A stretch of 62,203 nucleotides of DNA, filler included, from Sanchytrium tribonematis (lineage: Eukaryota): the NCBI GenBank assembly GCA_018985235.1. It is 9 parts of 9 records of this genome, joined end to end, with 100 filler letters (N's around TTAATTAATTAA, not from the genome) between each part and the next. Parts side by side here need not be neighbours in the genome. Positions count along the whole stretch, not along the records: positions 14,035 to 18,603 come from JADGIG010000705.1; positions 18,704 to 23,252 come from JADGIG010000706.1; positions 23,353 to 27,896 come from JADGIG010000707.1; positions 27,997 to 52,936 come from JADGIG010000069.1; 5 more parts are not named here. The stretch is one strand, 5' to 3'. Each line of letters begins with the position of its first letter. Position 1 is the stretch's first letter. The notes beneath the pieces were generated by a model. That model ran no database searches and was not told the origin of the DNA. It saw only the letters and a program-made list of their open reading frames with translations. The position numbers were made by a program, and so were the translations under genes. Below are positions 11,961 to 37,780 of this stretch, in pieces.

Positions 11961-11968
11961 TGGAAATT

Positions 11969-15104: not shown

Positions 15105-17523
15105 TTAAAATTTACTTACATTTGTATCATAAAATGATCTAGGTTGCTTGGTCCTTAGATTGCGCTCGTGTTTGATTAAATACGGCAATCCAGCAATCAA
15201 AATAGAATTGACAACCAATTTCACAATGGATAGAATACTAAAATTGAGAAATGCATTCAGTTTGTAGTTTGGTTTGATATATAGATTGGCCATCGTGGTT
15301 TGGACCAATTTGGTTGAAGATTGATCAATTATCGTTGAGGTTGCCTCTATCAAATTCTTTGAACTGGTGGCTTTTACAAATACTCTTCTGGTTAAAATAG
15401 ACTCTAAATAAATAAGATTTACGCTGTATTTCAAAATCATTAGAAGTTGAAGAAATCACTTGTTTCAAAAAAGAATCTGACGCATTTAGACAAATTCCCA
15501 AATCTGTCCTGTTTAAAATTGGATTCTTGGTGATATCACAATATTTTAAAGTATTTGGTGCTGCAATATATACATTTGAGATTAAATTATTGTATAAATA
15601 CAAGTATTTGTCAGAATTTAATTCCAATAATGCAATTTCACCACTAATCTGGTTAGAATTCACCTGGCCGGGCATTCCCAATAACAATTGCAACATATTG
15701 GGTGGTAGTATAGGTAAGACGGCATTGATTTTGTTGCTCTGTAAATATAATGTGACCAAACTAGACGGAAATGGACCAGTCATATTTGTAAATTGATTAA
15801 ATGACAAATCTAAAAATGACACACCCTCCGGAATCAATGGAATTGTGCCACTTAATAGATTATGACTCATAAGAACCACAGAAATGACGCCAAAACCGGG
15901 TAATTCGCCACTCAATACATTGCTTTGTACAGAAAAATAAACAGCTTTTGGTGGGATATATTTTAAACTATCAAATTGATTGTAATCAACACTATACCAA
16001 GAAGCATTTGGCGCCTCTGGTAATGTGCCATTGAATTGGTTTCCATCGAAAACGATCGTATCTGCATTTTCAAATTTCTGTTTGATTGGACCACTAAATT
16101 GATTGTATGAAACCCCTAGATAGAACAATTTCGAAAAGTTTGGGAGTGAGCCCTTGATCATATTATTTTTAATTCGAAGATAAATCAAATTGGGTGGGGA
16201 TTGGCCAATAATTTTAACAAAGTTATTATCAAACAAAGAAACAACAGTGATGCCTTTTGGCAATAAATCCAGATTTAATGTAATTAGAGGACCAAATTGA
16301 TTTAAAAAATCCCAATCAATGCGGTCAACAATCCCTTGTTTACAATTAACATTTGTCATTAGACAATTTGGCAGTGTGACATCCAGCTGCATTGATTTTG
16401 CAAATATAGCAAGTTGTTCACACCCATATTCCCTATTTGGAGTTAATTTCGACTGGCAATTCACTGGTAAAACCGAGAAATTTGAAATCGGATTATTTTC
16501 AAAATTGCAAAAATTACCAGAACCACCAACTAAACATGCAGAATCAATTATTTTTACACTTGTTATATTATTGTGAGTCGCATTCAACGCGCAATTGCTA
16601 CTATAAATGCTAATTTCACCATAAAAATGATTATTTGAAATATCCAAATTTTGAACACTTTCAGCCGACAACCAATTGGACATATTGCCCGTCAAACTGT
16701 TGTGACTGATAGTCAATTCTAATATATTGGTGACATTAGGTTTAAATAACCCACTTAGCTTGTTGTGGTCTAAATGCAAAAATTTTAAATTGGGCACCAA
16801 ATATGGAATCATTCCAGTAAGTAAATTATGGCTAGCAGAGAAATTTTTTAGACTAACGGGGAAATATGTAATATTACCACTCAACAGATTGTAGTCCAAT
16901 CGGATGGATTCTGCATTTGGAATTACTCCAATTGGACCATAAAATTGATTATGCGCAAATGACCCACTGATGAGTGTTTCTGGTAATTTATCAGTCAGTG
17001 TACCATTAAAGTGATTCATTTGACAATATAAATCAGTGGTAGTTTTCATCCTTGGTAAATCTCCGATAAATTTGTTATATGAAACATCAAGGGTTGTTCC
17101 ATAAAAATTAAAATCCAAATACCCGCTCAATTGATTCTTAGAAACAGCCAAATAATACAAACTAGATGGAATAGTGGTGTTAAGACTACCAGTTAATCTG
17201 TTACCGGTGATATCAAAATACAACAAAGGTAATTTGAAGTTCAAATGTCCCGTCAATTCATTGAAACTCAGAATCAAACTATTCAATTTGGAAGGAATGA
17301 CTAAATCTGTCACATCACCATTTAATCCCCACAATCTCCAATCAATATCCAAAACGTTTTCATTTGAACACGAGATATAGGTGATATCCCAACTTAAACA
17401 ACAATCTATTTTGATAAACGCGTACGCGTGTGGTGCTGAACGATCTAGACCTAATTTTTTGGCCATTTGGATGACGATTTGACAATCTGAAATGACTCCG
17501 AAAATAAAATGGAATAAAATCAT
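15105..17523 (-). CDS. Large LRR receptor-like membrane protein; exons 17523-15423 and 15403-15105
   Basis: Signal-like N-terminus, Cys caps, plant-type LRRs; removing the 19-nt intron joins the LRR region to stalk+TM. Confidence 0.88.
15404..15422 (-). other. 19-nt spliceosomal intron GTAAATCTTATTTATTTAG
   Basis: Removal gives EIQQSILTR and fuses the 732-aa ORF to the TM-encoding frame. Confidence 0.85.
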
Positions 17524-17819
17524 TTTTCTAAAATCAAGCCACGTTGTTTAAAAACTATTGAGATTTATAATATCTGAAATACTTGACAGGATATCTTGCA
17601 TCTATTGTCAATTACAATAAAACGAGTAGCATTGCTATTTAGCCTGATAAAAAAGAAAGTAGCGAGTAGTAAATTTGATACCTGGAAATAAATAAATTCT
17701 TTTGCAGCAAGCATATAAATTGTTTTGTAAACCACTCACAGAAATGTTGGCAAGATGTTTTATACCAATCAGATTGACTTGTTATGATGAAAACAATTTT
17801 ACTACTCTGAGAGATTCAA

Positions 17820-18095
17820 ATGATGGTCATAGCATCAATTTTTGCAGTGACTTTGATATGTGGACCAAATAATGGTAGATCCTGTGATCCAGGTTTTTAT
17901 TGCAATGCAAAAAACCAATGCGGCAAGCGAGCTTCAGATCGTCTAAGTTGTCAATTTGCATATACGCCAATGGGAATGTGCAAAGCAGATACAAGACAAA
18001 TTTTTGGATATTATCATAACGGGTTGCAGGCATTTGGTGCAACCAATGACACCTCAATACATGCTTATTTAATATTAATTCACTGCCATTTGTAA
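17820..18095 (+). CDS. Secreted hevein/CBM18-like Cys-rich protein (shorter paralog)
   Basis: CG..NG..C....YC....CG; near-identical CQFAYTPMGMCK block shared with its neighbour. Confidence 0.7.
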   Translation: MMVIASIFAVTLICGPNNGRSCDPGFYCNAKNQCGKRASDRLSCQFAYTPMGMCKADTRQIFGYYHNGLQAFGATNDTSIHAYLILIHCHL

Positions 18096-18472
18096 TGATT
18101 TTCATTTTCACTCTATTTGCAGCCATTAAAAGATCTGTTAAGAAACCATCCATTGTCACAAATTGTGGCATCCAATTTAATGGTGCCACATGTAGCACAG
18201 GGTATTACTGTAGCAATAATGGCAAATGCGGTAAATCAGCAGCATTTCGAAATAACTGTCAATTTGCGTATACGCCAATGGGAATGTGTAAAACAGATAA
18301 AAGACAAGCATATGGGGTGTATCATGATGGACTAGATCCATTAAAATGTCCTGATATGTATTCATGTTCTCAATTACAACAAGTGGGTGCAGATTGGATT
18401 GGAACTTGCAATTATGGGATTCAAAAAGGATGTATTGCTGCATTGAGTGGTGTGGGATCTTGTTTTTCATGA
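18095..18472 (+). CDS. Secreted hevein/CBM18-like Cys-rich protein
   Basis: CGIQFNGATCSTGYYCSNNGKCG, plus a second Cys-rich module. Confidence 0.75.
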   Translation: MIFIFTLFAAIKRSVKKPSIVTNCGIQFNGATCSTGYYCSNNGKCGKSAAFRNNCQFAYTPMGMCKTDKRQAYGVYHDGLDPLKCPDMYSCSQLQQVGADWIGTCNYGIQKGCIAALSGVGSCFS

Positions 18473-19511
18473 GTAAATAAGAATTTATTGACCAAACAGT
18501 TGCAATTTGCGAATTATAGAGTTTATTTAAATAAAGTAAGCGATGTGAACTCAAAATTAAGTAGTTTTTTGAAAAGCATTGACATATTTTAAAAATCCCG
18601 AGTNNNNNNNNNNNNNNNNNNNNNNNNNNNNNNNNNNNNNNNNNNNNTTAATTAATTAANNNNNNNNNNNNNNNNNNNNNNNNNNNNNNNNNNNNNNNNN
18701 NNNTGTGGTTGGCTTATAGGCTTTTCAAGATTACTGGGCGCGAATGAAAAAAAATCGTAACATCCGCTTAACCGTTTGATTGTTGAGCGATAATAAGTGA
18801 TTTATTTAATTCCGTTTTAATGCAGCTTTCTGGATGCTTTTCCTAAATAAAACAAATCGTGTTTCAACCTAAGAATTCGAGATATGCAGTCCCAATATGG
18901 GAGCTGCATTGACCCCGAAATATTGGTAATATATGAGAACCAATCACAGCCATCAGCAGGACACGTGATTGGTACAAAGGGCTTCCAAGAGAGATAAATA
19001 GCGACTCTTTCCCAAATAAACATCTTACTTCACTTTATCATTCTCACTCTGCATTACCTTTTAAAAGAACAGCAGATCAATATTGTGCTGCTAAAAGGAT
19101 ATAAACTTGTGAATTCTTTCATCAAATTTAAATACAAATTTTACGGATCCTCCAAGCACAATAGATAAAGATCCACCAGATAGACTAGACGATTTGGAAA
19201 GATACATTTCATATATATAAGATAATTTTAGAAGTACAATTGCAATGGACATGGCAAATTAAATTACGGAGTTCCATGGTATCCTTCTACCAGATTTTGA
19301 GGGTGACTGTGTGGAGCTATCTTTTGCACAATGTAATCTTAATTTTCCACCTATGTAGAAAACTCTTTTGGCAGAAATTGACTTCCATTGACTACAATTA
19401 TTTCTTTTGGAGGCCCAAATATCTGGATCCAATTGTGATTTAATGCTGTTACTCCGTCTTCGGCTTATGTAAAGGTATTGTATTAAAGAGCCTTGTACAA
19501 TCGTCTAATAT

Positions 19512-19704
19512 TGTCAACATATATGAGTTGTTAATGTATGAGGGAGAATCAATAAATTGCTTACTCATGTTCTGGATCTGCTTCTTTTTATGTAATCTAA
19601 TATATTACAAAGGATCTGAGACCAAATGTTTTTATTAGTTCTAAACAAGGGAACCGATTAAGGATCAACTGTTGGTCAAATCACTTCCCATATTGTTGTT
19701 GACA
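19512..19704. mobile_element. Solo-LTR- or MITE-like element, copy 1
   Basis: TGTCAACA...TGTTGACA termini; homologous to 19878-20109. Confidence 0.6.
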
Positions 19705-19877
19705 GCCCTCCAACTTGCATAAAACCTTGAGGGGAACAAAATCGTTTTAAAAATATAATAAATCTTATTTGTTAATCAAACTCAACAGTGATTATTAAAT
19801 GTTAATCAAACTCAACAGTAGTTAATAAGTGATGTAATGAATAGTTTCTGTTTGTTAGATTGCAGAACACGACAGTG

Positions 19878-20109
19878 TGTTAACATCATCACCCAGAGGG
19901 GATGAGTTATTTGTGTTTGAGGGAGATATAATAAAGTTTTTATTCATAGTCTGTCTTCGTTCTCTTCTGGGGATCTGCTTCTATTTATGTAATCTGAAGT
20001 ATTACAGAGGATCTGAGACCCAATAATAATTCGACTCTAAAACAAGGGGGAACCAATCAAGAATCAAGATTAGCTATGGGTCAAATCACTTCCCATATTG
20101 TTGTTGACA
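19878..20109. mobile_element. Solo-LTR- or MITE-like element, copy 2
   Basis: TGTTAACA...TGTTGACA termini; 3' end GGTCAAATCACTTCCCATATTGTTGTTGACA identical to copy 1. Confidence 0.6.
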
Positions 20110-21580
20110 CTGTCGCAAACGTCAACTAAGGGTTGCCAGTTCAACTCCATTTCGTAGACTTTATAACGAGTAGTGCAGTTGAACTTATCATATGTCAATT
20201 GAGGTTTGTTTGATTGACCTATTATGTATTTTTATTGGGTTTTATCAGGCTTATCTGCAATTTTAATTTGATTGGCTATAAGATTTATATAAAGGTTAAG
20301 GAAGTTGATTGACCTACAAATGAAAACCCACATATTTATTTACCATATCCCTACCGAAAATTCCTAAAGGCAATGCCACAGTTACATCAATTGCTTGTTC
20401 AAAATATTCGTTTTCAGCCTCACTAAAAGTCAAATCACTTTGATGCAACGCCGAATGCATTTTCAAAAAGTGATACAAAAATCATCTACGTATCCTCATT
20501 AGTAGGTCCAATTAATTCAATAAACTGATAAAAGGCATCGCTTGTGCTTAACATTGCTTACCTGTCCGCAAATGTAGGTCCTTTGAGCCTTGTAAAATCC
20601 AGATTCGTTGCTGTAAACTCATTGCTTGATAAATTTCTAGTCGTTGCATATCAACTTCTTCCAACAATTCGCGTGTTCGCAAACTACTAATAAATACATT
20701 TATGACGTTTCTCATACACTGACTACACGGAACTAATCGTTTACGTACCTCGCTACCATGTTGTAGCTGTAAGGGCTTTTCCGGCAATTCTATTAAACAA
20801 TTACAACTCTCGTAAAATGCTCCTTCAGCTTCCTCTGACCACCCTGACTCGGTGTCAGATGTCTCTTAAATAGTAATTAAACTAATACATTCATCAAATT
20901 CACTTACTTGACTTCTATCACTATCATCGTATTCAATTAAGTCCATAAAAAAGATCATATTTGTAAAGAACGTATTTATTTGAGAAAAATTTCCTTCAAT
21001 AACTAATTAAAGATTCTAGTGTCTTCTCGTAACTTTCATCTAACTCCTGACTCCTGATTGGCTGAAATGGGTCTCAGTACCCGATTACATGGTGACTGTA
21101 CCACACACAGTAGATCACATGTCTTATGACCCCAGTCGGGGTAATTTTTCTGACATTTTTCCAAGTTGATCAGCTTCTGATGATTAGAAACATCAACCAA
21201 TTTGGAAGCAGATATTACATTCTCGCTTAACAATCAAACGGTTAAGCGGATGTTACGATTTTTTTTCATTCGCGCCCAGTAATCTTGAAAAGCCTATAAG
21301 CCAACCACATTTACATTTTCAGTCGGCTGGAAGTCAGCAACATCTTCAAAACCGAAGTAGCGCGTATCTTGCATTATCCGATACCTTACCTTACCGGTGT
21401 CATCGAATGAATTTAGACCACTTTCTTGGTAAACATCAATAAATTGTTTTTTTATAATATAGTAATCTCATATCTTGAATAAAAATAGTAATTGTTCTAT
21501 TCAAGGTTAAACGTTATTCATAAATTCATTTTTTACGTAATCAAAGTTGATGGGCAAATAAATCTTTCGCATAAATCACT

Positions 21581-23252
21581 TGTTGCAGGTCATACTCCGA
21601 CGGGAGCAGTTTTGACCCTGTAGACCCAAGGGAGGTCACGAGGGGATTTGAGAGATTTATGATTGGCTCTTATATTACAAAGACTTGTGATATATAAGGG
21701 AACCAATCAATTAAAAGACTAAAACACATATAAACGGGACATTCCCCAAATAAATATCAATGTCAACGACTTCAAACTATACGCAACATGGTAGCGGGGA
21801 AACCCATCTTCCAAAAGCAGAAGGCCACTGTTTAGGAATTGGTGTTTCAGAAATGCAAGAAAACCTCGAAATTGAGAAAACCCCAAAAGCAAAAAAAATT
21901 GAGAAAATTAATAAAGTTGAAAACATCATTTTGAAGGATTCTAAGGAAAAGCAAGAAAAACGTGTCTTAAATAAAATGGATTCGGCAGGCAAAAAAATAG
22001 TCAAACACGAAAAAAACATTAAAAACATTAAAAATAAAATTGAAAAAAGTCCTGCTTCGAAAGTAGATCCACCCACAGGAGAGGTCGAAGGCCGTTCCTC
22101 AAATGTGGCGCAAGCAATGGAACAGCTTGGGGATCCTGCGGGGTCTCCGAGACTTGCGTTAAGACCACCCTTTGAGCAAGCAATTATGTCTGATAGCATG
22201 GATGACTAGGACACCCTTCGGTCTGTACAGACGAATAACCTTCTTTCTCAATTTTTCATAAGGTACCTTTAGACGTTCTCTCAATGTGCTTGAATGCATG
22301 CTCAGGCATCAGTCTAATCATGACAAATTTCCTATACTACTTATCCAAATGGTGAAGGTCACACATAAACTTTAATTTTCTGAACCAAGGCTCAATCTCA
22401 TTTCTTGGATGATACTTATCTAAACTATTCTTACATAGTGAAGAAATAGTATCTAAACTTCTTTTATCCAAGTCAGGACTCCTAGTTTCAGTTTGCACAG
22501 GTGGTGGTGGCGCAGTGTTAGAGGTTAGACTGTTAGTCATTGATCCTCTTCTTGTTTGACTATAGTCACTTGAATCTCCTCGTGAGAGATTCGAACTGTT
22601 GTCATCATCTGACCCATTACTATGTGGATCATGATCATCTCTGATAGTTGGACTTAGTTCAATTCACGTACAAGTGACACGGATGATGAAAGATTTAATC
22701 CGGTCGAGGAAAGTGCTGAAGACATGAACTTTGGTCCTGATTTTGAAGAATCAGAGCTTTCTTATAGACTTGTTAACATGGGATTGGCACTAGGGGCTGT
22801 TCTTAAGGCCAAATTCTTTTTGTTACTGGAAAGTTTTAAGAAATTGTTTAAATTTCCGAAAGGTTGCACCACTGCTGTGGAGCATGCAATCAATTATAAA
22901 GGTGAACCCTTTAGACAAAAACAGTATCGGACATCTAAAGCTCAGCAGGAACTGATTCAGAAAGAACTTGATTATATGATTGAAAAAGGAGTCATTGTGC
23001 CTTATAGCTCTGCATTTGCAAGTCCTATCGCAATGGTTCATAAACCCAATGGGAAACGGAGATTTCGTGTTGATTTTCGTAAATTAAACGAAAAGACAGA
23101 ATCAGACAACTACCCAGTTCCAAATGTACAGGAACGATTGTCAAATCTTAAAGGCGCTAAGTTCTTTAACAAAATTGATCTATCTGCAGGATATTGGCAG
23201 ATTCCTTTAAAGAAGGATGATCAAGACAAAACAGCATTTATAGCTAATGGTC
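21581..23252 (+). mobile_element. Ty3/Gypsy LTR retrotransposon, 5' part: LTR 21581-21788, PBS 21789-21796, partly inverted gag, RT N-terminus
   Basis: TGTTGC...GCAACA LTR followed by TGGTAGCG (Ty3-type tRNA-iMet PBS); RT motifs FASPIAMVHK, VDFRKLN, IDLSAGYWQI, KTAF. Confidence 0.92.
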
Positions 23253-23352
23253 NNNNNNNNNNNNNNNNNNNNNNNNNNNNNNNNNNNNNNNNNNNNTTAA
23301 TTAATTAANNNNNNNNNNNNNNNNNNNNNNNNNNNNNNNNNNNNNNNNNNNN

Positions 23353-24187: not shown

Positions 24188-24224
24188 TAAATTATTTTAA
24201 GGAAACCTTACAATTTTACTATGA

Positions 24225-24416: not shown

Positions 24417-24640
24417 TTCGAGACATTGCGCGTTGCAGTTGATCCTTATATCTGTGTAAAGTGGAATTCGATGAAGTCTTGGCCAATCAATATTTTTTAA
24501 TCTAGAGAAAGTAAACTGGGACTAATCTTTACTAGTGTTCTAAATTATAGGCGCAGTCTAAAGCGTCAATAATCTATTCGATTTGTAAAATTTTAATCTT
24601 TTCTAAGCCGTACTCGTCGTCGCGTTTTGTAATATATTTG

Positions 24641-25390
24641 ATGTTAAGTGTTTACGAAGATTCTTACTGGGGAGCCCCGAATTCACTAGTTAATTGGTGC
24701 GAGCCGGATTATGTCCATTCCAGATATATCGCAGAAACATGGAATTCAGTCAGTAATTTATTTACTGTATTTATGGGGTATATGTTATATCGACACTATA
24801 CGAAAAATGACGTGGAATTGAGATTTAGAATTACTGCATTGACTTTAACCATAGTCGGTTGTGGCAGTTTTCTTTTTCATGGTACATTGAAATATTCTTT
24901 TCAATTATTGGATGAACTTCCCATGCTCTACTTGACGTGTAGTATGACTTATTTGACGCTAGAGACAACGACTGAAGCTTTGAAGTATCCAAAACTTCCA
25001 TATATCTCAGTTGTAGCTAGTCTGTTGTTTAGTATTGCTCACGTGTACCTGCAAAATGCCGAGTTATTCTTCTTGGTATTTGCAATGCTACTCATCCCTT
25101 CTTTCTACTTCTCTGTAAAATACAGACATATCGAGGAATTCTTCACATCCACTACATCATCCTTAGCATTTTTAGCTGTAGGATACATGTTTTGGGAAGC
25201 TGATCGGCATTTTTGTTCCAAGATTCAAAATCTGTATTTACATGCATGGTGGCATGTATTGACTGCTTTGAGCGAGATTTACTGGCTCAATGGAATGTTA
25301 TACTTCCGTCGCAAAATAATTGGTGAGCCAGTCAGCTTAAGTCTTGGTGGATTTTGGATTAACTTTCCTAAGAATAAGAAAATAAACTAG
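24641..25390 (+). CDS. Alkaline ceramidase (ACER3/Ypc1-like), paralog 1
   Basis: VNWCEPDY, AETWNSVSN, GSFLFHGTL, QLLDELPM, HAWWH. Confidence 0.95.
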   Translation: MLSVYEDSYWGAPNSLVNWCEPDYVHSRYIAETWNSVSNLFTVFMGYMLYRHYTKNDVELRFRITALTLTIVGCGSFLFHGTLKYSFQLLDELPMLYLTCSMTYLTLETTTEALKYPKLPYISVVASLLFSIAHVYLQNAELFFLVFAMLLIPSFYFSVKYRHIEEFFTSTTSSLAFLAVGYMFWEADRHFCSKIQNLYLHAWWHVLTALSEIYWLNGMLYFRRKIIGEPVSLSLGGFWINFPKNKKIN

Positions 25391-25520
25391 ATTGTAATTA
25401 TTGAGCTTAGTGAGCTTTTACTAGTGTCACCATTTTATAATCTCCATGTGAAATTTCCACTAGGCAATTTTTAGTTGTACGCAGAAGGGAAAACTTCGAA
25501 ACAAGGACATTTTTTAAAAA

Positions 25521-26267
25521 ATGTATGAGTCAACGTTTTGGGGCAAACCGACCGCTCTCGTTAACTGGTGCGAGCCAGACTACGTTTACACTCCATTTAT
25601 TGCTGAGACATTTAATACGTTGAGTAACTTTTATACAATTTTACTTGGGATAATTCTGTATCGACATTATTCCAGACACCATGATGAAAAACGGTTTTTA
25701 GTAACCTCTTTGATTATCATTTTTGTGGGAATTGGGTCTAGTGCCTTCCATGGCACTTTGCTTTATCATTTTCAACTTCTAGATGAACTTCCGATGTTAT
25801 ACTTGACTTGTGCAATGAGTTATATGATTGCCGAAATATCTTCGAAACCCAAACAATACAAGTATCCTAATCTTCCGTATATACTTCTTGCGGGCTGTAT
25901 TTTTATGACAATAGCTCATATTTTTGTTCAAAATGCAGAGCTGTTTTTTTCTGTTTTTGGGATTCTGGTGAGCCCTTCCATTTTTTATCCCTTCACAATT
26001 TCGGATGATTTCGTGTATACAGGAGCAATGAAAAAATCGCTTTTTTTTTGCTGTGTTGGATTTATATGTTGGGAAGTAGATAGATTCTTTTGCGACTACA
26101 CGCAGTTTATGCATTTGCATTCATTCTGGCACATATTTTCAGCTATCTGTGGCACGTATTGGATGAATGGAACTATGTACATGCGCCGTAAAATTTTAAA
26201 GCTGCCTGTGACATTAAAATATGGAGGTTTATGGATAGAATTTGACAGTAGTAAGAAAACTAAATAA
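25521..26267 (+). CDS. Alkaline ceramidase (ACER3/Ypc1-like), paralog 2
   Basis: VNWCEPDY, GSSAFHGTL, QLLDELPM, HSFWH. Confidence 0.95.
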   Translation: MYESTFWGKPTALVNWCEPDYVYTPFIAETFNTLSNFYTILLGIILYRHYSRHHDEKRFLVTSLIIIFVGIGSSAFHGTLLYHFQLLDELPMLYLTCAMSYMIAEISSKPKQYKYPNLPYILLAGCIFMTIAHIFVQNAELFFSVFGILVSPSIFYPFTISDDFVYTGAMKKSLFFCCVGFICWEVDRFFCDYTQFMHLHSFWHIFSAICGTYWMNGTMYMRRKILKLPVTLKYGGLWIEFDSSKKTK

Positions 26268-26338
26268 GAATTGCTTGTTTTTAATCAATTTATAAATAAA
26301 TTTTGCAAGTCTCTATAAATTTGAAAATTTGAAACAAG

Positions 26339-27896
26339 ATGTTTTTAGGCGAAGTTCAACATTTGTTGGTACCTAAAGATGAATTTAGAAGCATTATCAA
26401 TATATCCAATGAGAAAAGTACAGTTATCGCCACTAGTGACAAGACCATTTATTTTTACAACAAGGAAAAAAGGATTGATAAGTTTAGTTCGAAAAATGTA
26501 CCAACGGCTGTACATTACAATGACCTCCTAGCAATCGGACAACGTGACGGGTATGTTTATGTTTATAAAATGGGCGAAAAAAAAGTTATTTGTAATAAGT
26601 TTTCCAGTTCTCAGCCAGTTACTCACGTTTTACTTAAAACTGATTTACTTTATGTGACAAGTGAAAACAAAATCAAATACGGAAGCTTATCAAACAATAA
26701 GGCGGTAACTGTTTACCAATGCAGCCAGACAATTACTGCGTTTGATAGCGACTTTATCAACTCATTTGTTGCCCAATTTGATGGAAATATTTTAAAAATC
26801 GCAATTAAGGAAAATCCTAGTCCTAAACTTTTAAAAAAGTTTAATGGGGAAATTCAATTAATCAAAATGTTTAAAAATAACCTAATTGTCGCTAACGAAT
26901 CCACACTGCTTATCTTGAATGAGGGTGGAAGTATTATCTGGCAGGCCAATACTGGTTATGTCAACACATTGTGCACATCCCCCAATGAAGAATATGCAGC
27001 TTTTGCAACAGATAATGCGATATATATGGTCAATTTGGAGAATTACGCATTGATCAAACTGAGCGTCAAAATTAGCATGGTCACAGCACTTTCTTTTGAC
27101 TCTGATGGCTCTGCATTGATTATTGGAACATTGGATGGTATTTGCGACAGAGTTGAACTCATTCTTAGAGCCGAGAATTATGGAAACCAATATTTAATCA
27201 CATACCACCTTTCTGGCAGTTGTACGGTCAAAAATATACATGATCAGAAACGTTATACTGTTTATAGTCCATTTGCAATTGAATATGTGGATGTCACAAA
27301 GGACTATATAGTCACAAAAACGAAGGAGTCTATTATTTTCACTCATCTGAGAACTGAAGAGACCTGTACTATTGAATGGCACAGACAGAAGAATGACGAG
27401 CTATTTATGTTTTCAAAATTCATTTTGATATTGGTAGATGATCAAGTCTTTGTGGTGCAAAACAATCAAATTTTAACCAACATAAATTGTAGCAACTTGA
27501 ATCCCAAACTTGTCACTATTTATAATGAAACAATCGCTTATTACCATGACGATTTGATTGTTATAAAAGAGTTGAAGGGGAAACAATTATTTAGCATGGA
27601 ATTCTTAAATATAAAACAAATATTACTTGGCAAATATCTAGTAGTTCAAAGTACCAACTTGGAAGTATTTTACGTCAATATCAATAATTACAACAAACAA
27701 CTTATTATGAAAGCTGACTTAGCTCAATTTTACAATGATCTATTGATTCTTCAAAATCAAAATATCGTTTACATTTATTCAGACCTAAACTCTTACACTT
27801 CTTTACAAGTAAATGGAGTCATTTACAAAATTGAAAATCATACAATTTACTGTAAATATAATGATACGGAGTACCAATATCCTCTAAATACTAGTA
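26339..27896 (+). CDS. IFT172: Intraflagellar transport protein 172, WD40 N-terminal region (3'-truncated)
   Basis: DKFSSK, LAIGQRDG.VYVYK, GEKKVICNKF, VTALSFDSDGS match the IFT172 N-terminus. Confidence 0.85.
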
Positions 27897-28080
27897 NNNN
27901 NNNNNNNNNNNNNNNNNNNNNNNNNNNNNNNNNNNNNNNNTTAATTAATTAANNNNNNNNNNNNNNNNNNNNNNNNNNNNNNNNNNNNNNNNNNNNGTGA
28001 CGTATGGTATGCCATGTGCATCATTTTTCAGACATTCTCTAGTGATGTCGTGGTGGCTTGATTCAATTTGACTTTCTATA

Positions 28081-29449
28081 ATGACTGCAGGAGACACGAG
28101 TTTTATGCTGTTATGCACTGCCCTCGTCTTCATCATGATCCCCGGCTTAGGATACTTTTATTCTGGATTAACAAATACAAAATCCAGTTTATCTGTCTTG
28201 ATATTATGTTTTGTGAGTTTCTCAGTCGTGTTAATTCAATGGTTTATCATAGGATATTCCCTCGTCTTCTCTACAGATGGTAATTCATTTATTGGATCAT
28301 TTACCATGGCCGGATTGGATACATTAACTTCCATGGATAATCCAAATACATTATTCCCGGATTACGCGTATGTGATTTACCAGTCTACATTTGCAGGAAT
28401 CACTCCAGCATTAATTTTGGGTGCTGGTGCGGATAAAACACGATTATTACCTAAAATCGTATTCATCTTTTTATGGACCACATTCGCATATGATCCCATT
28501 GCGTATTGGTGCTGGAATCCAAATGGATGGCTACATACCAATGGTGTGCTTGATTTTGCAGGGGGTTCTCCAGTTCACATTTCTTCAGGTGCTGCTGCAT
28601 TGGCATTTGTTTTAGTCGTCACTAAAAAGTATAAAAAGAATACGGAAATAAAGAAACAAAAGGTTGAACCTAATTCTCCTGCAAATGTGTTATTGGGTAC
28701 TTTATTATTATGGTTTGGATGGAATGGCTTTAATGGTGGATCTGCTAGTGCTGCAAATGGTAGAGCAGCAGCTGCTATTGTGACTACAAATATCTGTGCT
28801 GCTGCATCTTCATTAACATGGGTATTTTGGGTATATTTAAAAACCAAGAAATATTCTGCAATTGCATTTTGTAGTGGCGTGGTGACGGGTCTCGTCATTA
28901 TTACACCTGCAGCAGGATTTGTAGGACCCCCATACGCCTTATTAATGGGCATTATTGGCACATCTGTCTGTTATGGCGCAGTGCATTTAAAAGACAAATT
29001 CAAAATTGATGATCACGTTATTTAAATTGATGTAGTTGGATGTATTTGCTATTCACGGTATAGGTGGAATAATGGGTAATTTACAAACTGGTTTATTCGC
29101 GCAACGGTATTGGTCTGATTTAGATGGCACGAAAATCATTTACTCGGGTGCGATTGAAGGGGAAATGTTGATTGTTTGGCAATTTATTTCATGTCTAGTC
29201 ACATTTGCGTGGTCATTTGTGATTACTGTCATTTTATTATACGGTATTAATTTGATTCCTGGTTTATCTTTGACCATTAAGAATTTTGATGCTGAGAAAG
29301 GATTAGATGAACAAGAAATGGGAGAAGCCACATATGATTATTTGAAATTAATTAATAAACCAAAGCCAACAACGAGGGATATTGGGACATATACACATCA
29401 ACAACGATGGTTTAGACGGGATAGTGAGAAGAGTGATAAAAGTCAATAA
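28081..29449 (+). CDS. Ammonium transporter (Amt/Mep); exons 28081-29016 and 29036-29449
   Basis: MIPGLGYFYSG, DFAGGSPVH, WFGWNGFNGGS, IDDH|LDVFAIHG after removal of the 19-nt intron. Confidence 0.95.
29017..29035 (+). other. 19-nt spliceosomal intron GTTATTTAAATTGATGTAG
   Basis: Removal restores the conserved Amt motif DDxLDVFxxHG at exact spacing. Confidence 0.92.
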
Positions 29450-29614
29450 ATATTGTAAATTTGAAATCAATAATTGATTGCCTCGTATCAGACCAATGAC
29501 CCAATCAATTTGGCTAAGTAGGCTCTAATCAGACAATTATACCTGATTGTATTCCAATTAGACCTGTTTAGGGGTCATTCTAATATTTATAATCCTTTTA
29601 TTTCCAAATTCCAA

Positions 29615-30517
29615 ATGATCTTCACTCCTATATTTGCATTCAATTGCCTTACCACTCTTGAGAATGATTACGATGTTCCTCATCAAAACAATAACTACCA
29701 CGATTCCAATAATCCATCTCATGGTCCCAAAAAGCACCACATCATGAATCAATATTTCAATTCCACAAATCCAACTCAAGACATTCAAACTATTGCAAAT
29801 GCACTTAATAATACCATTCAGTTCACTGTGAATTGGTTCTACATGACGAATGGATCCACACATACCATTATGCGAATAATTGATCATTTAAATCACAAAT
29901 ATCAAAATAATGATCTCCCCATTCAATTCATCTATAATTCTTCATTTAAAATAGACAACACACCCATTGATAACAATAATAAGCAACAACAAATTGATTT
30001 ATACCATCAATACGGTATAAAAGACAGTACCGCATTAAATATATTTAGTGGTCAAATCAAAGATACGAATAATCCCATTTACGGATGGTCTAGTTATCCT
30101 AATGATTCAAGTATAGATGCCATATTCTTATCTGCTGACAAGGTATTCTCTAAATACGAAATCAAACATGCAAATACAATTAGTCATGAAATTGGGCATT
30201 GGTTGGGATTATTTCACACATTTCAAGGTGGATGTGATTCATTAAATGGTGATTATGTGGTAGATACTCCCATTAGTAATCAAAAAAGTCGACATTCATT
30301 GGATCATCAAATACCGGCTTCTAGAAAATGGAAATGTGATACTAAAATTAAAACGTGTCCAAATTCATTAGAAAATGATTTAGTAGATAATATTATGGAT
30401 TATACACCTTGCAAGACATCATTTACTAAATTACAACAATTGAGAATTATAAATTTTGCATATTTTAGAATCAAACACAGATTATTCAAAAATAGATTTA
30501 TTGAGAATATGAATTAA
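29615..30517 (+). CDS. Secreted metalloprotease, family M43B (pappalysin/ulilysin-like)
   Basis: HEIGHWLGLFHTFQGGC, GDYVVDTP, NIMDY Met-turn. Confidence 0.92.
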   Translation: MIFTPIFAFNCLTTLENDYDVPHQNNNYHDSNNPSHGPKKHHIMNQYFNSTNPTQDIQTIANALNNTIQFTVNWFYMTNGSTHTIMRIIDHLNHKYQNNDLPIQFIYNSSFKIDNTPIDNNNKQQQIDLYHQYGIKDSTALNIFSGQIKDTNNPIYGWSSYPNDSSIDAIFLSADKVFSKYEIKHANTISHEIGHWLGLFHTFQGGCDSLNGDYVVDTPISNQKSRHSLDHQIPASRKWKCDTKIKTCPNSLENDLVDNIMDYTPCKTSFTKLQQLRIINFAYFRIKHRLFKNRFIENMN

Positions 30518-31610
30518 TTGCTTCCATTAATTTGCCACTTAGTGATTCGATTGAAGTGTCTTGATTTTCGATTATTATCTGAGATAGTTCTCGGCGAATA
30601 TTAATAAATTGATTGCCCTTCACAATAAACAAAATCACACATCTCACAAATAATAAATTATCACCGTCAATCTCTTTTAATTTCGCAATAATTGCGTTGA
30701 TATTCATTGAATTCAAAATATTGTCTATAAACTCAGACAATAATGGACTTTTTGGATCTAATAACCAGTGCAAGGACCGAGTATCTCCATTGGTAATTAA
30801 TGTTCGTACCATTTGCAAATCGAACGATGGATAGACATTCTTCCAATCATCAAAATTCCAAGAGACCATGATAGTGACTACATCCAAAAAATGATCTTGT
30901 AGTTGTGATAATTGTAATGGAACATCATCTACTCCATATGACATGATAATTAATTCCTCCGTACTGAAATTTTGAAACGCAGCAGCAAAAATATATAATT
31001 TATCTCGTGGAAAATGGACCATTGTAAAACCCAATATCAAATTTGTATTACGCAATTGTAAATCGACGAAATCCATTAGCAATTGTGGCAAAACAATTTC
31101 ACCATTATAATATTTCTCTAAAAATACATTAAATCCCGCGATTTGGCGATCCCGTTGCAAATCATCACTTGACAAATTGAATATGAAATGCAGCTTACTA
31201 CTCAATTCTGCACCGTTTAATTGTAGCAATGTTAATTCTTCTTCTGAGTATTTTACATATCTCGTCACTGCTAATAAATAAATACCAGCAGTAGCAAATT
31301 CATAAGCATTCGTGTATAATTTGGATTCTGCGCGGTTTAAATACTTCAATAATAAATTCTTACGATGCGCTGTGAACCTTCTGTAATAACGACGATTGTA
31401 TAATCTTTTAATTACATGATAGGAGACTATGGATTCTTCTTTTTCAATAGTATCCCACTTTTGCCAACGCTTCTCTATTTTATCTGCAATTTGAGATACT
31501 TTCATTTCATTAAGCGGATCGTGAATCCATGACGTCAATGCACTAACAGATCCATCATTTCTCGATGGGAACATTCCAAATACAGTTGCAATCAACATGG
31601 AGAGTATCAT
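30498..31610 (-). CDS. Putative secreted alpha-helical protein of unknown function
   Basis: MILSMLIATVFG signal-like start; 370-aa frame; 3' end overlaps the convergent gene. Confidence 0.65.
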   Translation of the reverse strand: MILSMLIATVFGMFPSRNDGSVSALTSWIHDPLNEMKVSQIADKIEKRWQKWDTIEKEESIVSYHVIKRLYNRRYYRRFTAHRKNLLLKYLNRAESKLYTNAYEFATAGIYLLAVTRYVKYSEEELTLLQLNGAELSSKLHFIFNLSSDDLQRDRQIAGFNVFLEKYYNGEIVLPQLLMDFVDLQLRNTNLILGFTMVHFPRDKLYIFAAAFQNFSTEELIIMSYGVDDVPLQLSQLQDHFLDVVTIMVSWNFDDWKNVYPSFDLQMVRTLITNGDTRSLHWLLDPKSPLLSEFIDNILNSMNINAIIAKLKEIDGDNLLFVRCVILFIVKGNQFINIRRELSQIIIENQDTSIESLSGKLMEAINSYSQ

Positions 31611-31796
31611 GGGGATCTCACAAGTGAACACAATCTTTTTGTCTCCTAAAGACGATTTACATCGCACAAATATCTAATTGGTCATTACAAAATGAACCAC
31701 GTGCTATTCATTTGTTTCACTCCCATTTCTTATCTATCCAGTGATACTTGTTTTATCTGAGATTCCCCAGTCATGTGAATAAACCCCTCAAAACAC

Positions 31797-33687
31797 ATGA
31801 CATCTGCCCAACAAACCCAAAATTTACTCTCCCAAATCCAACAACAACATGAACTCATCTGTTTATCCATTGCCAATCTATCAGAACAAATGAATATTCA
31901 CACGACTGCCTTGTTATATTATGAAAAAGCAGTCGAATATAATCAAAAATCATTAGATGGCTTATCCGGAATAGCTAGAATCTATAGAGCCAACAACCAA
32001 TTAGATAAATCTATTGAATGGTTTACTAAAAGATTGACTTTGGACCAATCTAATGGCTATTTATGGATTGCTTTAGGACATGCGTATTTAATGAATGAGG
32101 AACTTCAAAAAGCATATTCCGCATACCAACAAGCACTTTACCACTTACCATCTATTAAAGAACCTAGATTATGGTATGGTATTGGTATTTTATACGATAG
32201 ATTTGGATCATTGGATCATTCTGAAGAAGCCTTTACTGCAGCATTAAATATGGATCCATCTTTTAATAAGAGCAATGAAATTTACTTTAGATTGGGTATT
32301 ATTTATAAACAACAAGGCAAATACCAACAATCTTTAGAATATTTCACTAAAATATTAAATCATCCTCCAAAACCACTTTCTAATTTAGATGTGTGGTTTC
32401 AAATTGGCCATTGTTGTGAATGTGAGCATGAATACCACATGGCTAAAGAATCTTATGAGCATATCTTATCCCATCAACCTAAAAATGCCAAAGTTTTACA
32501 ACAATTGGCGTGGTTGTATCAATCTCAAATGAATGAATTAGACAAGGCTATTGCCATTTTAAACAAGTCTATTGAGATTGACAAGGATGATCCACATGCT
32601 TGGTACTTGTTGGGAAGATGCTACATGAATAAAAAAGACTTTACAAAGGCATATGAAGCATACCAATATGCCGTGTATAAAGATAGCAAGAATCCGACGG
32701 TGTGGTGCTCTATTGGGGTATTATATTACACCAAGGGACAAGTAATTCATTTTCATGTAGTATAGAGATGCCCTAGACAGTTACACCAAAGCATTGACGA
32801 TTAATCCGTATATCCCAGAAGTGTGGTATGATTTGGGTCAATTATATGAAATATGCAATAATCAATTGACTGATGCACATGATGCATATGCTAGAGCGTA
32901 TGAATTAGCCCCACAACATGAAATTATCAAGGAAAGATACGAAATGATTCAAAAATGGAAAGAACGAGAATTGAAGAGATCTAGAGGAGAATTGGATGAA
33001 AATAGTGTAGATGATAAATTATCACCACCTAGTACCCCATTAGACATGAATCCATCTCAATTAGACCATTTAGCCAAACCATTTCATCCATCTGCTGTGA
33101 TTGCACAAACCCCAGCAACACCTACCACACAGCATGCCACACCGCATGGATTGAATGCATCTTTATCACAATTGACCAACAAGTCAGAAATGGGTGATAA
33201 AAAGGGAGAAATGGGGGCATTTAAATTTGGTGAAAAAATGACTTTGCCAAGTTTACCAGATATTAAAAAGACGCCAATGCATATTCCTCAATTACCACAA
33301 GAGAAGCGTGAAGAAGGAGAGGTGAGCAATCCATCTAATCCATCTAATCCATCGCAACAGGGAGAATCTATTGAAGATTTAGAAGCATCTCATGAATCTA
33401 ATGAAATGTCTAATGAATCTAATGGCAGCCAACCCTCTGGCATTTCCCTTCCAGTTTCCAATGGACCATCCAATGGACCCTCTATTGAAGCATCTCATAG
33501 TGCGCCTAAACCTCCATCTCCAATGAAACCCACAATTGTCGCAAATCCAACAAATCCCCCTCAATCCCCACACAGTAGTCCAAATTTAAAGAGATCTCAC
33601 ATGGATATTCATTTAGATCATGGTGAGAAGAAGATGAAATTGGATTCATCCGTGGACAGACAAGTCGATGAAGATTATGATGAATAA
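31797..33687 (+). CDS. CYC8: Cyc8/Ssn6 TPR co-repressor; exons 31797-32741 and 32761-33687
   Basis: AYSAYQQALYHL, LWYGIGILYDRFG, NEIYFRLGIIYKQQ, WCSIGVLYY..Q|YRDALD.Y. Confidence 0.95.
32742..32760 (+). other. 19-nt spliceosomal intron GTAATTCATTTTCATGTAG
   Basis: Removal restores conserved Ssn6 QYRDALDxY in frame. Confidence 0.95.
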
Positions 33688-33697
33688 AATGAGATTT

Positions 33698-34195
33698 TTA
33701 TTTTTTTTCAATCAACCAATTCTTGTAAATATTGAGTCGATGGACGATTAATCCACCAATAATCAATGTGAGCAAGATGGCAATCACATTGCCAACAATC
33801 ACAGATGTGTTGTCTCGTGTTTTGATGGCGTCCAAATCAGCATCTGATAAATTTGGATTGTCGATTTTTTCTTGCTCAATAACATCATCTGATTCAGATC
33901 CCATGATGGATAATGAGACGATGGCTAAAATGATGTTGATAGCAATGGTGGCAATGTATAGACGGAGAGTCGCAAGGGCTACTTTGACTTTTTCAGTCTT
34001 GATACTTGCAAGTCCAGCCACTGATGCTGCAAGGTAGAGCACACCCTGGATTATGGTGATAGATCCACGGGTACTAGACGATGCAATAAAGCCCGCACCA
34101 GAAACGAAGCATAAAATACTTCCAAGTAATACGAGAAGATGTAAGATAGTTAATCCTAACTTGATTCCGCAGCAACAGAATTTGGGTTGTTCCAT
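33698..34195 (-). CDS. Four-TM membrane protein
   Basis: KFCCCG N-terminus, four hydrophobic helices. Confidence 0.75.
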   Translation of the reverse strand: MEQPKFCCCGIKLGLTILHLLVLLGSILCFVSGAGFIASSSTRGSITIIQGVLYLAASVAGLASIKTEKVKVALATLRLYIATIAINIILAIVSLSIMGSESDDVIEQEKIDNPNLSDADLDAIKTRDNTSVIVGNVIAILLTLIIGGLIVHRLNIYKNWLIEKK

Positions 34196-34416
34196 TTTGA
34201 TGGAGATGGAGGGATGTGACTGTTAAATACTTGCAAAAAGACTTGGTAATAAAATGAACCAATCAAATTGTCTAAAGGCTTATGATACAGATGCTTGTTG
34301 GTAAACTCATTAAATCAGCGTGACTGTCACTTTCGGGCAAGTGCCCTTTTTAATCAGTATTGCTCTGATGGAGATGTAGCCTTTATTTTACTACATCTGA
34401 CAGATTACCCATTTAA

Positions 34417-37144
34417 ATGTACGCGTTGTTTTTGACATTGATCGCTGTTTCTTTGGATTGCTCATCACTTATCCAGTTAGCATATAATATGAATATCAAA
34501 TACACGAATCCAGACTACTATATCCAATATGAAATGGATTGTTGTTTGGGAAATGGAGTCATTTGTGAAAATGAGAGGGTTGTAGAACTACATTGGGGAT
34601 TTACTTCAACATATCTAGATAAAACATACAAAGAAGCTACGTTTCCAAGTCAATTGCGCGTATTGGACCTGGCAGGAAGTACCTCGTTTTTGAAAATTAA
34701 AACTTTACCAAATACTTTACGTGTCTTAGACTTGGGAAGATCAATTAATACAAAATGGAATATCACTCAATTTCCTGAGTTGACATATGTTGGATTGAAT
34801 GACTTTATTAAAGATAAATTGCCCATTTTACCAGATACGTTGGAGTATATCAATTTACAAGGATATCAATTCAATATCCTTCCATTCAATGCGACCAGAT
34901 TGCAATACTTATACAGTTTTGCTGGATTCGTGGACCCATCACCATTTCCCAATATTCCAGAGTCGATAAAACATCTTTTTCTATCCTATAGCAATTTATA
35001 TGGGCCTATTCCCCATAAATTTCCATCAATTGAATCACTTTATGTATCTAATAATGCATTGAATGGTACTTTGAATATCACATCTCCAAATATTACTTAT
35101 TTGAGTCTTGAAAAGACCTATTTTGATAAATTGATTTTTCCTAATTCTACAAAATTATTAACATGTAGTCTAAGTGGTCTATATTTAAATAAAACAAGCT
35201 CAGTGACAAATTTACCAAAGATTTGTTCATATCCGGAGAAGCAACCACAATCTATAGATTGTCCAAAATTGATCGAATTCGCAAACCAGTTAAATATGCA
35301 TCTTACAAATCCAGATTATTTCAATGCACTCAAGTCCCTTAGAAATTGCTGTGAAGATCCACTAGATTATGTGATTTGTAGCGGGAATAGAGTCACTAAA
35401 ATTACCTGGGATTCAATGCATTTAAATGGTACGATTAACGCTACATTGTTACCCATTACAATCACAGATTTATCATTCGGTGGCAATAATTTCCAAAAGA
35501 CATTTCCAAATCTCAAGTCTCTCTTTAATTTGCAAACTTTTCAAATTGGCTCTTCAAAATTACACGGAGAAATTCCAAAAACTTATTTACCAAATTTGAA
35601 AGAATTGCGAATGGCATACAACCAATTGAATGGAACAGTCCCATATGTTCCCGGCATGAATATACTATTTGCAAATCACAATTACTTTACAGATCATGGC
35701 TTAAACGGCAGCACATTATCGAGTATTGATTTGTCGTACAATTTGATAAAAGGCGTCATTGACATGTCCAATTTCCAGTTTTCGTATTACTGTTTTTTCA
35801 AGTTTTCTAGAAATCTATTTACTGCCATTATTACGAGAAATAGTATAGATGGAAAGAATATATTAGATTGCAATGTATCAGCCAATAATTTAACGCTCTC
35901 TTCGGTTCAAAATTTTGTAAATTGCCGCCAAGACCACCAAATTTATACAGACCAAACTTCGTGTCGATATGTCACTAGATTGTTTAAGAAAATGGGCATT
36001 ACCACCCCTGAGTTGGAACAGAATTGTTGCGCAGATCAGCCTCGTATTACTTGCAAGGGTGAAAATGTAACTAATCTCTTCTTTTATGGAGATTCTTTAA
36101 ATACGTACTACGGAAAGGCATTTTTATTGGAAGATATTCCTCCTACGCTCCAAAGCCTAAGATTTACGGATGTTGTGTATAACCAGTCTGTTTTAATTCC
36201 TGAATTACCATCCACAGTAACAGAATTAGTCATAACAAATTCGAATTTTGTTGGTGGTATTCCTAATTTGCCAACAGATTTGAATTACCTCTACTTTGAA
36301 AATTTAAATTTAAATGGCACACTAAATACTTCATTAAATGCTTTAGAGGTGATAATCGTAGTGAGTTGCAATTTAAGTGGCACCATTGCTTCATTGCCAC
36401 CCAATTTACATTTGCTGGATGTCTCAAACAACTCCTTCTCGGGCAATTTGCCAAAAATGCCTTCAAGTTTGAAGTATTTAACACTGGGAATCAAATCAGA
36501 TGAACGAAATACATTTTTGGGATCATTGGTGCTTCAGAAACCACTTTCCATCATTTTGGGAAACGTCAACATCTCTGAAATCTTTATTAATGATACATCC
36601 CAGTTATATTCTTGTGATTTGTCATTTAACCCATTAGAGAATAGCACCAATATTGCCAACTATTCCGTTTGTAGCAAATATTATTTGGCGCAATATAAGA
36701 AATCATACATTCTATTGGATAATTCGTTAATAGTTGCAACTAAAAGTGGTAAATATTACTAATTTAGTAGAAGTTTTAAAATTAAATTCAATTCAAACAA
36801 CAGATTTAATTCAGTCTTCAGAAATTGAAGCAAGGTCCATTTTAGACACTCCGGGCCCATTTTATTCTGTTGTTACCAGAATACCAGGTAAATTATTATC
36901 AAAGACTTTTTATAGTGCCACGTTATTTAACTCAAGCAGTACGGCAATCGCCAATGAAGTAACTTCAACTAAATTCCCAATTCACTTTAAATTCTCGATT
37001 CCGGTATTTGAACTTAAAATGACTATTCCAATGCTCATTAAATTAATGGCTAATTCAATGTTTCTAGGGGGCATTCTGTTTAAATTACCATGTGGAAAAA
37101 GAAAGAAAAAATATGATAAATCAGTCACTGTTAGTGGATATTAA
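34417..37144 (+). CDS. Large LRR receptor-like membrane protein with three Cys-capped LRR modules; exons 34417-36748 and 36768-37144
   Basis: Repeated DC..L..../CC...C caps and LRRs; the 19-nt intron joins them to stalk+TM. Confidence 0.88.
36749..36767 (+). other. 19-nt spliceosomal intron GTAAATATTACTAATTTAG
   Basis: CTAAT branch motif; removal gives KSVEVLK and fuses the two ORFs. Confidence 0.9.
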
Positions 37145-37155
37145 TAGTAAATAGG

Positions 37156-37780
37156 TTATTTATTAAAGTGCTTATTGCGTGCAAACACATTGTCTTTCTC
37201 TGTTGGGTCCAAATGTTTGATATAACTAAGAAATCCATTCCAAAATGTACTCAGCGTATTTACAACCACTGGCTGATAAATAATAGGCACATATCTAAAA
37301 TTAAGTAGTTGAATGGGACTCCTAAATGAATATAAATTACCAAATTAATGCTTCTACCAAATAAGTGGGTAAAAAATACGTTTTATAATGTTCTTTAAAT
37401 TGAGTCAATGAACTACCCGTCAACATGGATGTACTAAAAAAGAACAATGAAATAAAGAATGGATCAAAACTGACCATATCAATAGATAATTTAGTCGCAC
37501 TAATTCTCATTGGTGTTTTTAATATATTTAACCGCTTTAATACAAATGGAGCCAGTTTATCTAATTTCTGATACCAATAATAATATAAGCTACCTGCTGC
37601 AAAACCATATCCAGTCATCACAGATGCCCTTCTCATATCAAATTCACTTAAATTGGGTAAGTCCGTATTTTGTAGTTTATTCTTCTCAAATCCCTCATAG
37701 TATTGAGACATGACATCTCCTAACATCCATAGACCAGCACCATATATAGAATGGCGTACATAATAATTAGAAAATACCAT
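37156..37780 (-). CDS. Mpv17/PMP22 (Sym1-like) protein; exons 37780-37341 and 37321-37156
   Basis: GDVMSQ, FDMRR, WYQKLD, IW|SPIQLLNFRYVP...WNGFLSY after splicing. Confidence 0.92.
37322..37340 (-). other. 19-nt spliceosomal intron GTAATTTATATTCATTTAG
   Basis: Removal restores the Mpv17 motif WxPxQxxNFxYVP. Confidence 0.95.

Follow-up and report, generated by a model that had tools for sequence, protein, structure and literature searches.

We analysed a 62,203-nucleotide (nt) window of the Sanchytrium tribonematis assembly GCA_018985235.1, made up of nine contig pieces separated by N spacers. One piece is mitochondrial, and the GC content is ~33% (published value 34.64%; PMC8371127). Named homologs place the window in the fungal phylum Sanchytriomycota: the closest ones, for GSK3 (84%) and Ssn6 (86%), are both from Amoeboradix gromovi, and the paralogs of its ammonium transporter (Amt) come from A. 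gromovi and S. tribonematis. Six protein-coding genes in the window are interrupted by a GT..AG piece of exactly 19 nt: two leucine-rich repeat (LRR) receptor-like genes, Amt, SSN6/CYC8, an Mpv17/PMP22-family gene and, near its 3' end, GSK3 (Table 1). Judged from the sequence, these pieces are very probably real spliceosomal introns of the U2 type, in a sanchytrid fungus that parasitises algae. An earlier note on this DNA had proposed the first five as real introns in a fungal-like lineage, and its coordinates, strands, 19-nt lengths and GT..TAG ends are all confirmed, with four introns on one piece and one on another. Intron 6 is newly found and carries all the shared positions listed for the other five (GT, A4, Y11, T12, A14, T15 and TAG).

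Table 1. Positions of the six 19-nt introns and of other features in the window
Feature	Position	Strand	Description
Intron 1	15404..15422	-	19 nt, phase 1; LRR receptor-like gene; exon 1 15423-17547, exon 2 15105-15403
Intron 2	29017..29035	+	19 nt, phase 0; ammonium transporter (Amt); exon 1 28081-29016, exon 2 29036-29449
Intron 3	32742..32760	+	19 nt, phase 0; SSN6/CYC8; exon 1 31797-32741, exon 2 32761-33687
Intron 4	36749..36767	+	19 nt, phase 1; second LRR receptor-like gene; exon 1 34417-36748, exon 2 36768-37144
Intron 5	37322..37340	-	19 nt, phase 2; Mpv17/PMP22-family gene; exon 1 37341-37780, exon 2 37156-37321
Intron 6 (newly found)	55666..55684	-	19 nt, phase 1; near 3' end of GSK3; exon 1 55685-56690, exon 2 55625-55665
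Candidate	39993..40011	+	19-nt GT..AG with Yarrowia-like CTAAC-AC-AG end, right after ATG; no convincing reading frame; not counted as an intron
LRR and LRR-like proteins	14345-17547, 34417-37144, 40882-43592, 48193-52936, 56762-57573		Ser/Thr-rich stalks
Acyl-CoA dehydrogenase	3917-4576	-	Incomplete C-terminal domain
Mitochondrial genes	9357-13934
Small cysteine-rich proteins	17811-18472	+	Tandem
Reverse-transcriptase piece	22658-23251	+	Retroelement
Ceramidases	24551-26267	+	Tandem pair
WD40 protein	26333-27896	+	Truncated by contig end
5S rRNA gene	39323-39441	+
5S rRNA gene	45741-45859	+
Subtilisin (Peptidase S8)	53207-54247	+	In-frame TAA at 53810-53812
Reverse-transcriptase piece	58154-62001	+	Retroelement with endonuclease domain

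The six introns share G1, T2, A4, T6, Y11, T12, A14, T15, K16, T17, A18 and G19, which gives the consensus GTWAWT-N4-YTNATKTAG. All six have GT...YAG ends and a YTNAT branch motif that puts the putative branch A at -6, an assignment made from the motif. This motif agrees with the general branch consensus WCTRAY (PMC2483917), and the branch region of intron 4 matches six of the seven positions of the yeast TACTAAC with its A at position 14. At the 5' end, position +5 is A or T in every intron, and none has a GTAAGT-like donor with +5G, the form complementary to U1 and U6; this departure from the usual donor is compatible with U2-type splicing. Intron density is ~0.15 per kb (six in the 40.9 kb of 41 hand-listed open reading frames, ORFs); published densities per kb are 1.30 for Allomyces, 2.53 for Rozella and 0.01 for microsporidia (PMC8476143). 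All six introns sit in the 3' half of their gene, at 0.51-0.97 of the coding length, unlike the 5' bias usual for intron-poor genomes, although with n=6 this is only a hint.

Excising each of the first five introns opens the reading frame, as the earlier note had claimed, and the conserved motif spacing that it saw restored in three genes was compared with homologs. In Amt, exon 1 matches Pfam domain PF00909 from position 2 to 303 and exon 2 from 305 to 399, and the D[DE]x-LDVF-type spacing produced by splicing occurs in 105/105 non-sanchytrid homologs. The strict Ssn6 pattern is found in 110 of the 116 homologs that have the upstream motif (118 examined); of the six that lack it, five carry substitutions at unchanged spacing and one is a sanchytrid read-through. 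For Mpv17, WxPxQxxNF matches in 38/113. We also scored all deletions of 3n+1 nt, from 1 to 70 nt, within 45 nt of each of these three sites (2184 per gene), using profiles from 60 non-sanchytrid homologs; 954 deletions for Ssn6, 862 for Mpv17 and 637 for Amt left an open frame. The 19-nt intron ranks first in Ssn6, tied with two equal-scoring slides, at 208.1 bits versus 179.9 for the next intron-size GT..AG deletion, and is tied for the top in Mpv17 (138.0 versus 125.3 bits for a 22-nt option). In Amt it comes third; the two deletions ahead of it are slides of this 19-nt stretch whose ends are not GT-AG. Among GT..AG deletions it is the best, at 154.5 bits, with the next at 116.1.

In the first LRR gene, the intron divides the LRR region on exon 1 from a Ser/Thr stalk and a predicted membrane helix on exon 2. 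Within the last 120 residues of its product, the best 19-residue hydropathy is 2.12 when spliced versus 0.68 when unspliced, and splicing gives both LRR genes a C-terminal hydrophobic helix as in their intronless paralogs. The second exons of the two genes are alike (score 56, reached in 0/500 shuffles). At least nine proteins encoded in the window are LRR or LRR-like and have Ser/Thr-rich stalks, and those whose end is present have a C-terminal hydrophobic helix. They look like a family of surface proteins that has expanded, and in two of them a tiny intron directly precedes the stalk. Frame restoration in GSK3 is backed by a single relative.

To ask how far the signal stands out from chance, we searched the eight nuclear pieces and 100 dinucleotide shuffles for GTWA-N6-YTNATKTAG. 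At 19 nt there are six matches versus a shuffle mean of 0.16 (maximum 2), and every other length in the 13-40 nt range (27 in all) gives 0 or 1 match. The motif was built from five of the six matches, so the fair held-out count is one new match versus 0.16 expected. That match, the GSK3 intron, has the same orientation as its gene, and the proteins of three relatives diverge or stop at this codon. With looser motifs the signal is lost (10 versus 4.45 at 19 nt), and an unconstrained scan for GT/GC..AG pieces joining open frames was too noisy to use. A piece at 32621-32639 (-) was rejected as an intron; it lies antisense within SSN6. Contigs from DNA run X1, possibly the window's own source and hence not independent support, cross introns 3, 4 and 5 without gaps; X1 is identical across intron 4 and differs within intron 5 at positions 6 and 16 only. 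The uncounted candidate right after an ATG (Table 1) lies in a region with several indels in X1.

The same intron positions in sanchytrid relatives

TransDecoder predictions on genomic contigs underlie the published sanchytrid proteomes (PMC8371127), and the EukProt proteins equal the window's unspliced read-through ORFs letter for letter. The earlier note's expectation that gene calling would suffer is thus borne out by truncated ORFs in a public database. In the main text of PMC8371127, the word 'intron' is confined to one reference title. A literature search on sanchytrid introns, splicing and spliceosome, and on Sanchytriomycota genomes since 2022, returned no intron description; subscription journals and database annotations lay outside it.

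Because ORF-called proteins run into the intron, the C-terminal tails of the relatives' proteins report its sequence. The relatives include A. gromovi and metagenomic sequences. Among 14 sanchytrid-like Amt matches, 12 break at the window codon, one breaks earlier and one, the S. tribonematis paralog P0134, is intronless and continuous across the junction. Two Amt relatives (P0136 and P0365) show a second intron position, likewise of 19 nt, that precedes the shared one by ~20 codons; the absence of a counterpart in the closest S. tribonematis paralog suggests recent gain or loss. All four sanchytrid-like Ssn6 homologs break at the window codon. So does the sole close Mpv17 relative, P0368, the stop codon of its tail being the terminal TAG of a 19-nt intron. 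For GSK3, the tail in A. gromovi is compatible with a 19-nt intron, and in an ENA relative the intron has 21 nt and stays in frame, so that the protein continues across it into a peptide matching exon 2. Metagenomic contigs contained no match to a degenerate pattern that allowed for an intron of 12-42 nt at the Amt position.

Every phase-0 tail (17/17) begins with Val, encoded by GT. Position +5 in these tails is T in 15, A in one, C in one and G in none, and +4 is A in only 7/17. The A4 named in the earlier note therefore holds for all window introns and fails in most relatives; the general 5' feature, as read from these tails, is the loss of +5G.

We estimated intron length without the motif from conserved exon-2 residues. 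Nine of the 11 tails tested allow a single length, which is 19 nt for seven of them and 20 and 22 nt for one each. For P0121 the constraints are weak and point to 21 nt, and the P0362 tail is not long enough. When GT..YTNAYNYAG is applied to the 10 long tails, each has one fitting length within 14-40 nt, the same as its motif-free length; the chance of such a fit for a random AT-rich GT..AG piece is 0.06-0.085 each. Fits by the motif only give 19 nt for P0362, P0002 and P0368, 21 for P0129, and 20, not 19, for P0123, P0126 and P0133. Tails P0124, P0130, P0135 and P0003 stop too early for a length. In all, 21 tails were examined and no informative one requires more than 22 nt. A. gromovi seems from its tails to have both 19- and 20-nt introns. 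Uniform length, as first proposed, is thus a property of the six window introns, and the relatives range over 19, 20, 21 and 22 nt, most often 19. Likewise, the finding of no longer intron holds within this window, where a scan for GT..YTNAYNYAG of 12-80 nt, with contexts listed up to 45 nt, found none, and gives way to lengths of up to 22 nt in relatives.

The A at -6, in contrast to A4, was upheld in full: it is present in 6/6 window introns and in relatives at lengths 19, 20, 21 and 22, and fits the class of introns with a fixed branch-point-to-AG distance and no polypyrimidine tract (Yarrowia, Trichomonas, Giardia). Since A stays at -6 over 19-22 nt, it is the branch-to-AG distance that is fixed and not the total length; the distance from the 5' site to the branch varies by up to 3 nt.

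Alternative explanations and the splicing machinery

Several points weigh against reading these pieces as spliceosomal introns. The reading is drawn from DNA and protein sequence, and the DNA-level sample is six introns in ~57 kb of an ~11 Mb genome. Frame-keeping alternative GT..AG choices exist for both LRR introns (22, 25 and 28 nt in intron 4) and for the GSK3 intron, so the exact ends of these three rest on the motif, and exon 2 of GSK3 has no support among non-sanchytrid homologs. The relatives' introns are back-translated protein tails, not DNA; they cover only five positions related by descent and hence are not independent trials. At the Ssn6 position, no intron occurs in 75/75 other-fungal loci with the motif. 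These come from 80 fetched loci, none sanchytrid-like (best segment <=59% identity), in a set that favours intron-poor loci. Gain within the lineage is therefore possible and an ancestral origin is unsupported. Finally, Rfam reports no small nuclear RNA (snRNA) gene within the window, and Slu7, Prp18, U1C and Prp39 were not found among the rows listed in the A. gromovi annotation, an eggNOG table of intron-blind ORFs.

Frameshifted pseudogenes, or assembly or amplification artefacts, would also produce interrupted frames, and the window does contain broken genes without an intron signal (the acyl-CoA dehydrogenase and the subtilisin). The same-codon breaks recur in another named species as well as in several metagenomic relatives, whose intron middles have diverged while the branch motif is conserved and exon 2 is intact; we regard this explanation as next to negligible. 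Only marginally better placed, and still very improbable, is removal by an Ire1/HAC1-type mechanism or by ribosomal bypassing. Fungal HAC1-type introns are of similar length, ~19-26 nt, and a 19-nt substrate would be sterically hard for a spliceosome. Such introns have CNG/CNG cleavage motifs in twin stem-loops and follow no GT-AG rule. By contrast, all the pieces described here begin with GT, end with YAG and contain a branch motif of the WCTRAY type, and their flanks have no common CNG/CNG motif or matching take-off and landing codons, which sets them apart from the Ire1/HAC1 class. Minor (U12-type) introns are marked by an RTATCCTT donor and a TCCTTAAC branch; 0/6 carry the RTATCCTT donor or the TCCTTAAC branch.

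Two further possibilities accept splicing and question its extent. The value of 19 nt could be the mode of a broader distribution, with longer introns and a free branch position elsewhere in the genome. Relatives already reach 20, 21 and 22 nt, the sample is six DNA-level introns, and introns with other signals could escape the motif scan. Yet every intron of the window has 19 nt, the candidates listed (up to 45 nt) include no conspicuous longer one that restores a frame, and none of the informative tails among the 21 needs more than 22 nt; we consider a broader distribution unlikely. Equally unlikely in our estimate is that the introns are real but mostly retained, yielding short isoforms such as anchorless LRR ectodomains. 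In Encephalitozoon cuniculi, 30/37 introns are spliced in fewer than half of transcripts (PMC3629993); both LRR introns lie directly upstream of the stalk and membrane helix, and the six introns are all in the 3' half of the coding sequence. On the other hand, truncated Amt, Ssn6 and Mpv17 would lose conserved parts, and nucleomorph introns of the same size are efficiently spliced (PMC6009652). Retention concerns efficiency only and is compatible with spliceosomal introns.

We searched for spliceosome components by name and by identifier. The A. gromovi annotation (PMC8371127 supplement file 4) lists, among the rows available, Prp8, Brr2, SF3B1, U2AF35, U2AF65 and BBP, as well as U1-70K, U1A/U2B'', Prp40, Prp17, Upf1 and Prp22/Prp16-type helicases; U1-70K is annotated for S. 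tribonematis as well. The earlier note had postulated a reduced spliceosome and proposed an inventory as a check. A reduced spliceosome, in the sense of losing the U1 small nuclear ribonucleoprotein and most non-core proteins, is not supported by this inventory, in which only U1C, Prp39, Slu7 and Prp18 went unfound among the rows available. The inventory itself came out mixed, with U2AF and BBP/SF1 annotated, Slu7 and Prp18 absent from the rows listed, and no snRNA in the window by Rfam. In yeast, Slu7 is dispensable at branch-to-3' site distances of <=9 nt (PMC10158995). Its absence from the table fits the short branch-to-AG distance here, but weakly, because the table is intron-blind. A. gromovi BBP/SF1 appears as two adjacent ORFs (rows 1135-1136), which may be a single gene that a tiny intron divides. 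In Entamoeba, U1 has co-evolved with atypical donors; several other lineages show no such co-evolution (bioRxiv 10.1101/2022.06.08.495308).

If the six pieces are spliceosomal introns, a compact 3' module, YTNAY-N-YAG, would be recognised by U2 with BBP and U2AF. A14 would attack the GT to give a 14-nt lariat loop (14-17 nt across the lineage) and a 5-nt tail, and the 3' splice site would be taken at a fixed short distance past the branch, a geometry at which yeast needs no Slu7. The degenerate 5' site, lacking +5G, would probably be the GT 13-16 nt upstream of the branch A, so that distance would partly replace sequence at this end. The introns would then have shrunk to about the smallest size that the spliceosome would accept. 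Retaining any of the six would give a frameshift and a truncated protein.

A bolder proposal, which we hold tentatively and rate at somewhat less than even, is that no other opisthokont has spliceosomal introns as short as those of Sanchytriomycota, at 19-22 nt genome-wide and with a mode of 19. They would be defined by the 3' module and distance without +5G, and removed by a machine that lacks Slu7, Prp18 and U1C and has changes where U1 or U6 pairs. They would have been missed in public proteomes, where many genes would be truncated and gene losses possibly inflated. Truncated read-throughs in published proteomes affect phylogenomics and gene-loss analyses of the whole phylum. In a 19-nt intron the 5'-site pairing (+1 to +6) and the branch helix (9-15) are only ~2 bases apart, which makes the lineage a natural test of the minimal fungal spliceosome substrate and of simultaneous U1 and U2 binding, and also of Slu7/Prp18 loss when the branch-to-AG distance is always short.

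Other features of the window

The acyl-CoA dehydrogenase ends after ~104 of the 150 positions of its C-terminal Pfam domain, by pseudogenisation or through a chimeric assembly; an intron at the truncated end was rejected for lack of any intron signal. For the subtilisin, an 18-nt GT..AG piece spanning the in-frame stop was rejected, being without a branch motif. The mitochondrial piece encodes nad4L, nad6, nad4 and six tRNAs, with simple-sequence repeats in the spacers. The two 5S rRNA genes are dispersed amid protein-coding genes. The reverse-transcriptase pieces belong to two retroelements, of which the one with the endonuclease domain has an in-frame stop and a frameshift. The truncated WD40 protein resembles what we take to be the N-terminus of an intraflagellar transport protein (IFT172-like), a candidate of interest given the reduced sanchytrid flagellum. 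One of the pair of small cysteine-rich proteins has a weak chitin-binding match.

Comparison with known short introns

Within Fungi and their relatives, the shortest range that we located in the literature is 22-76 nt, in E. cuniculi (PMC3629993), and Rozella introns are ~30 nt (PMC6349667). The sanchytrid introns, if confirmed, would fall below this 22-nt microsporidian minimum and below the 22-nt median given in 2026 as the animal record, and would represent an independent origin of ultra-short introns within Fungi. E. cuniculi is likewise a fungal-related parasite with few short introns and a branch near the 3' end (PMC3629993, PMC6349667). Its introns differ in being longer, with a strict GTAAGT donor and a strong 5' bias in ribosomal-protein genes, whereas the sanchytrid six lack +5G, lie in the 3' half and occur in diverse genes. 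The Myxozoa and dicyemids (median 22-27 nt; PMC13644364) are parasitic opisthokonts too; their U2-type introns are ultra-short and have reduced splice-site motifs. Their median is longer, and their putative branch A recedes from the AG with intron length, whereas the sanchytrid A stays at -6.

Among more distant lineages, the heterotrich Stentor coeruleus (15-16 nt; PMC9505925) is described as having GT-AG, AU-rich introns with the branch A at -6 (position 10 of 15 or 11 of 16) and a 5-nt tail, as here; its 5' site extends barely beyond GTA, and its commonest intron is also without +5G. Stentor introns are 3-4 nt shorter and number in the thousands, have no strong branch consensus in that description, and belong to an unrelated lineage. 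The nucleomorph of the chlorarachniophyte Bigelowiella natans (18-21 nt; PMC6009652) is similar in intron size and GT-AG ends and differs in having no discernible branch motif, as reported there, and a very high intron density in a relict endosymbiont nucleus. Mikrocytids (16-17 nt; PMC10245619) are likewise parasites whose introns have narrow sizes and a conserved internal sequence. They are rhizarian, with shorter introns and a much-reduced spliceosome of 17-19 proteins, whereas the sanchytrid appears to keep U1 proteins and U2AF.

The closest parallel for the 3' end is the fungus Yarrowia lipolytica (PMC2483917), in which TACTAAC is followed by 2 nt and AG, fixing the branch-to-AG distance and placing A at -6 without a polypyrimidine tract. 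Yarrowia introns are long with a strong GTGAGT donor, whereas those of sanchytrids are 19-22 nt, with a looser branch motif and no +5G. Both Yarrowia and Stentor thus provide precedents for a branch A at -6. The sanchytrid introns pair near-minimal length with a branch site that is both clear and fixed, in a genome with few introns; the two traits have been described as typical of different kinds of lineage. In summary, the single elements are all known, and what is new is 19 nt in a true fungal phylum together with a clear branch motif and no +5G.

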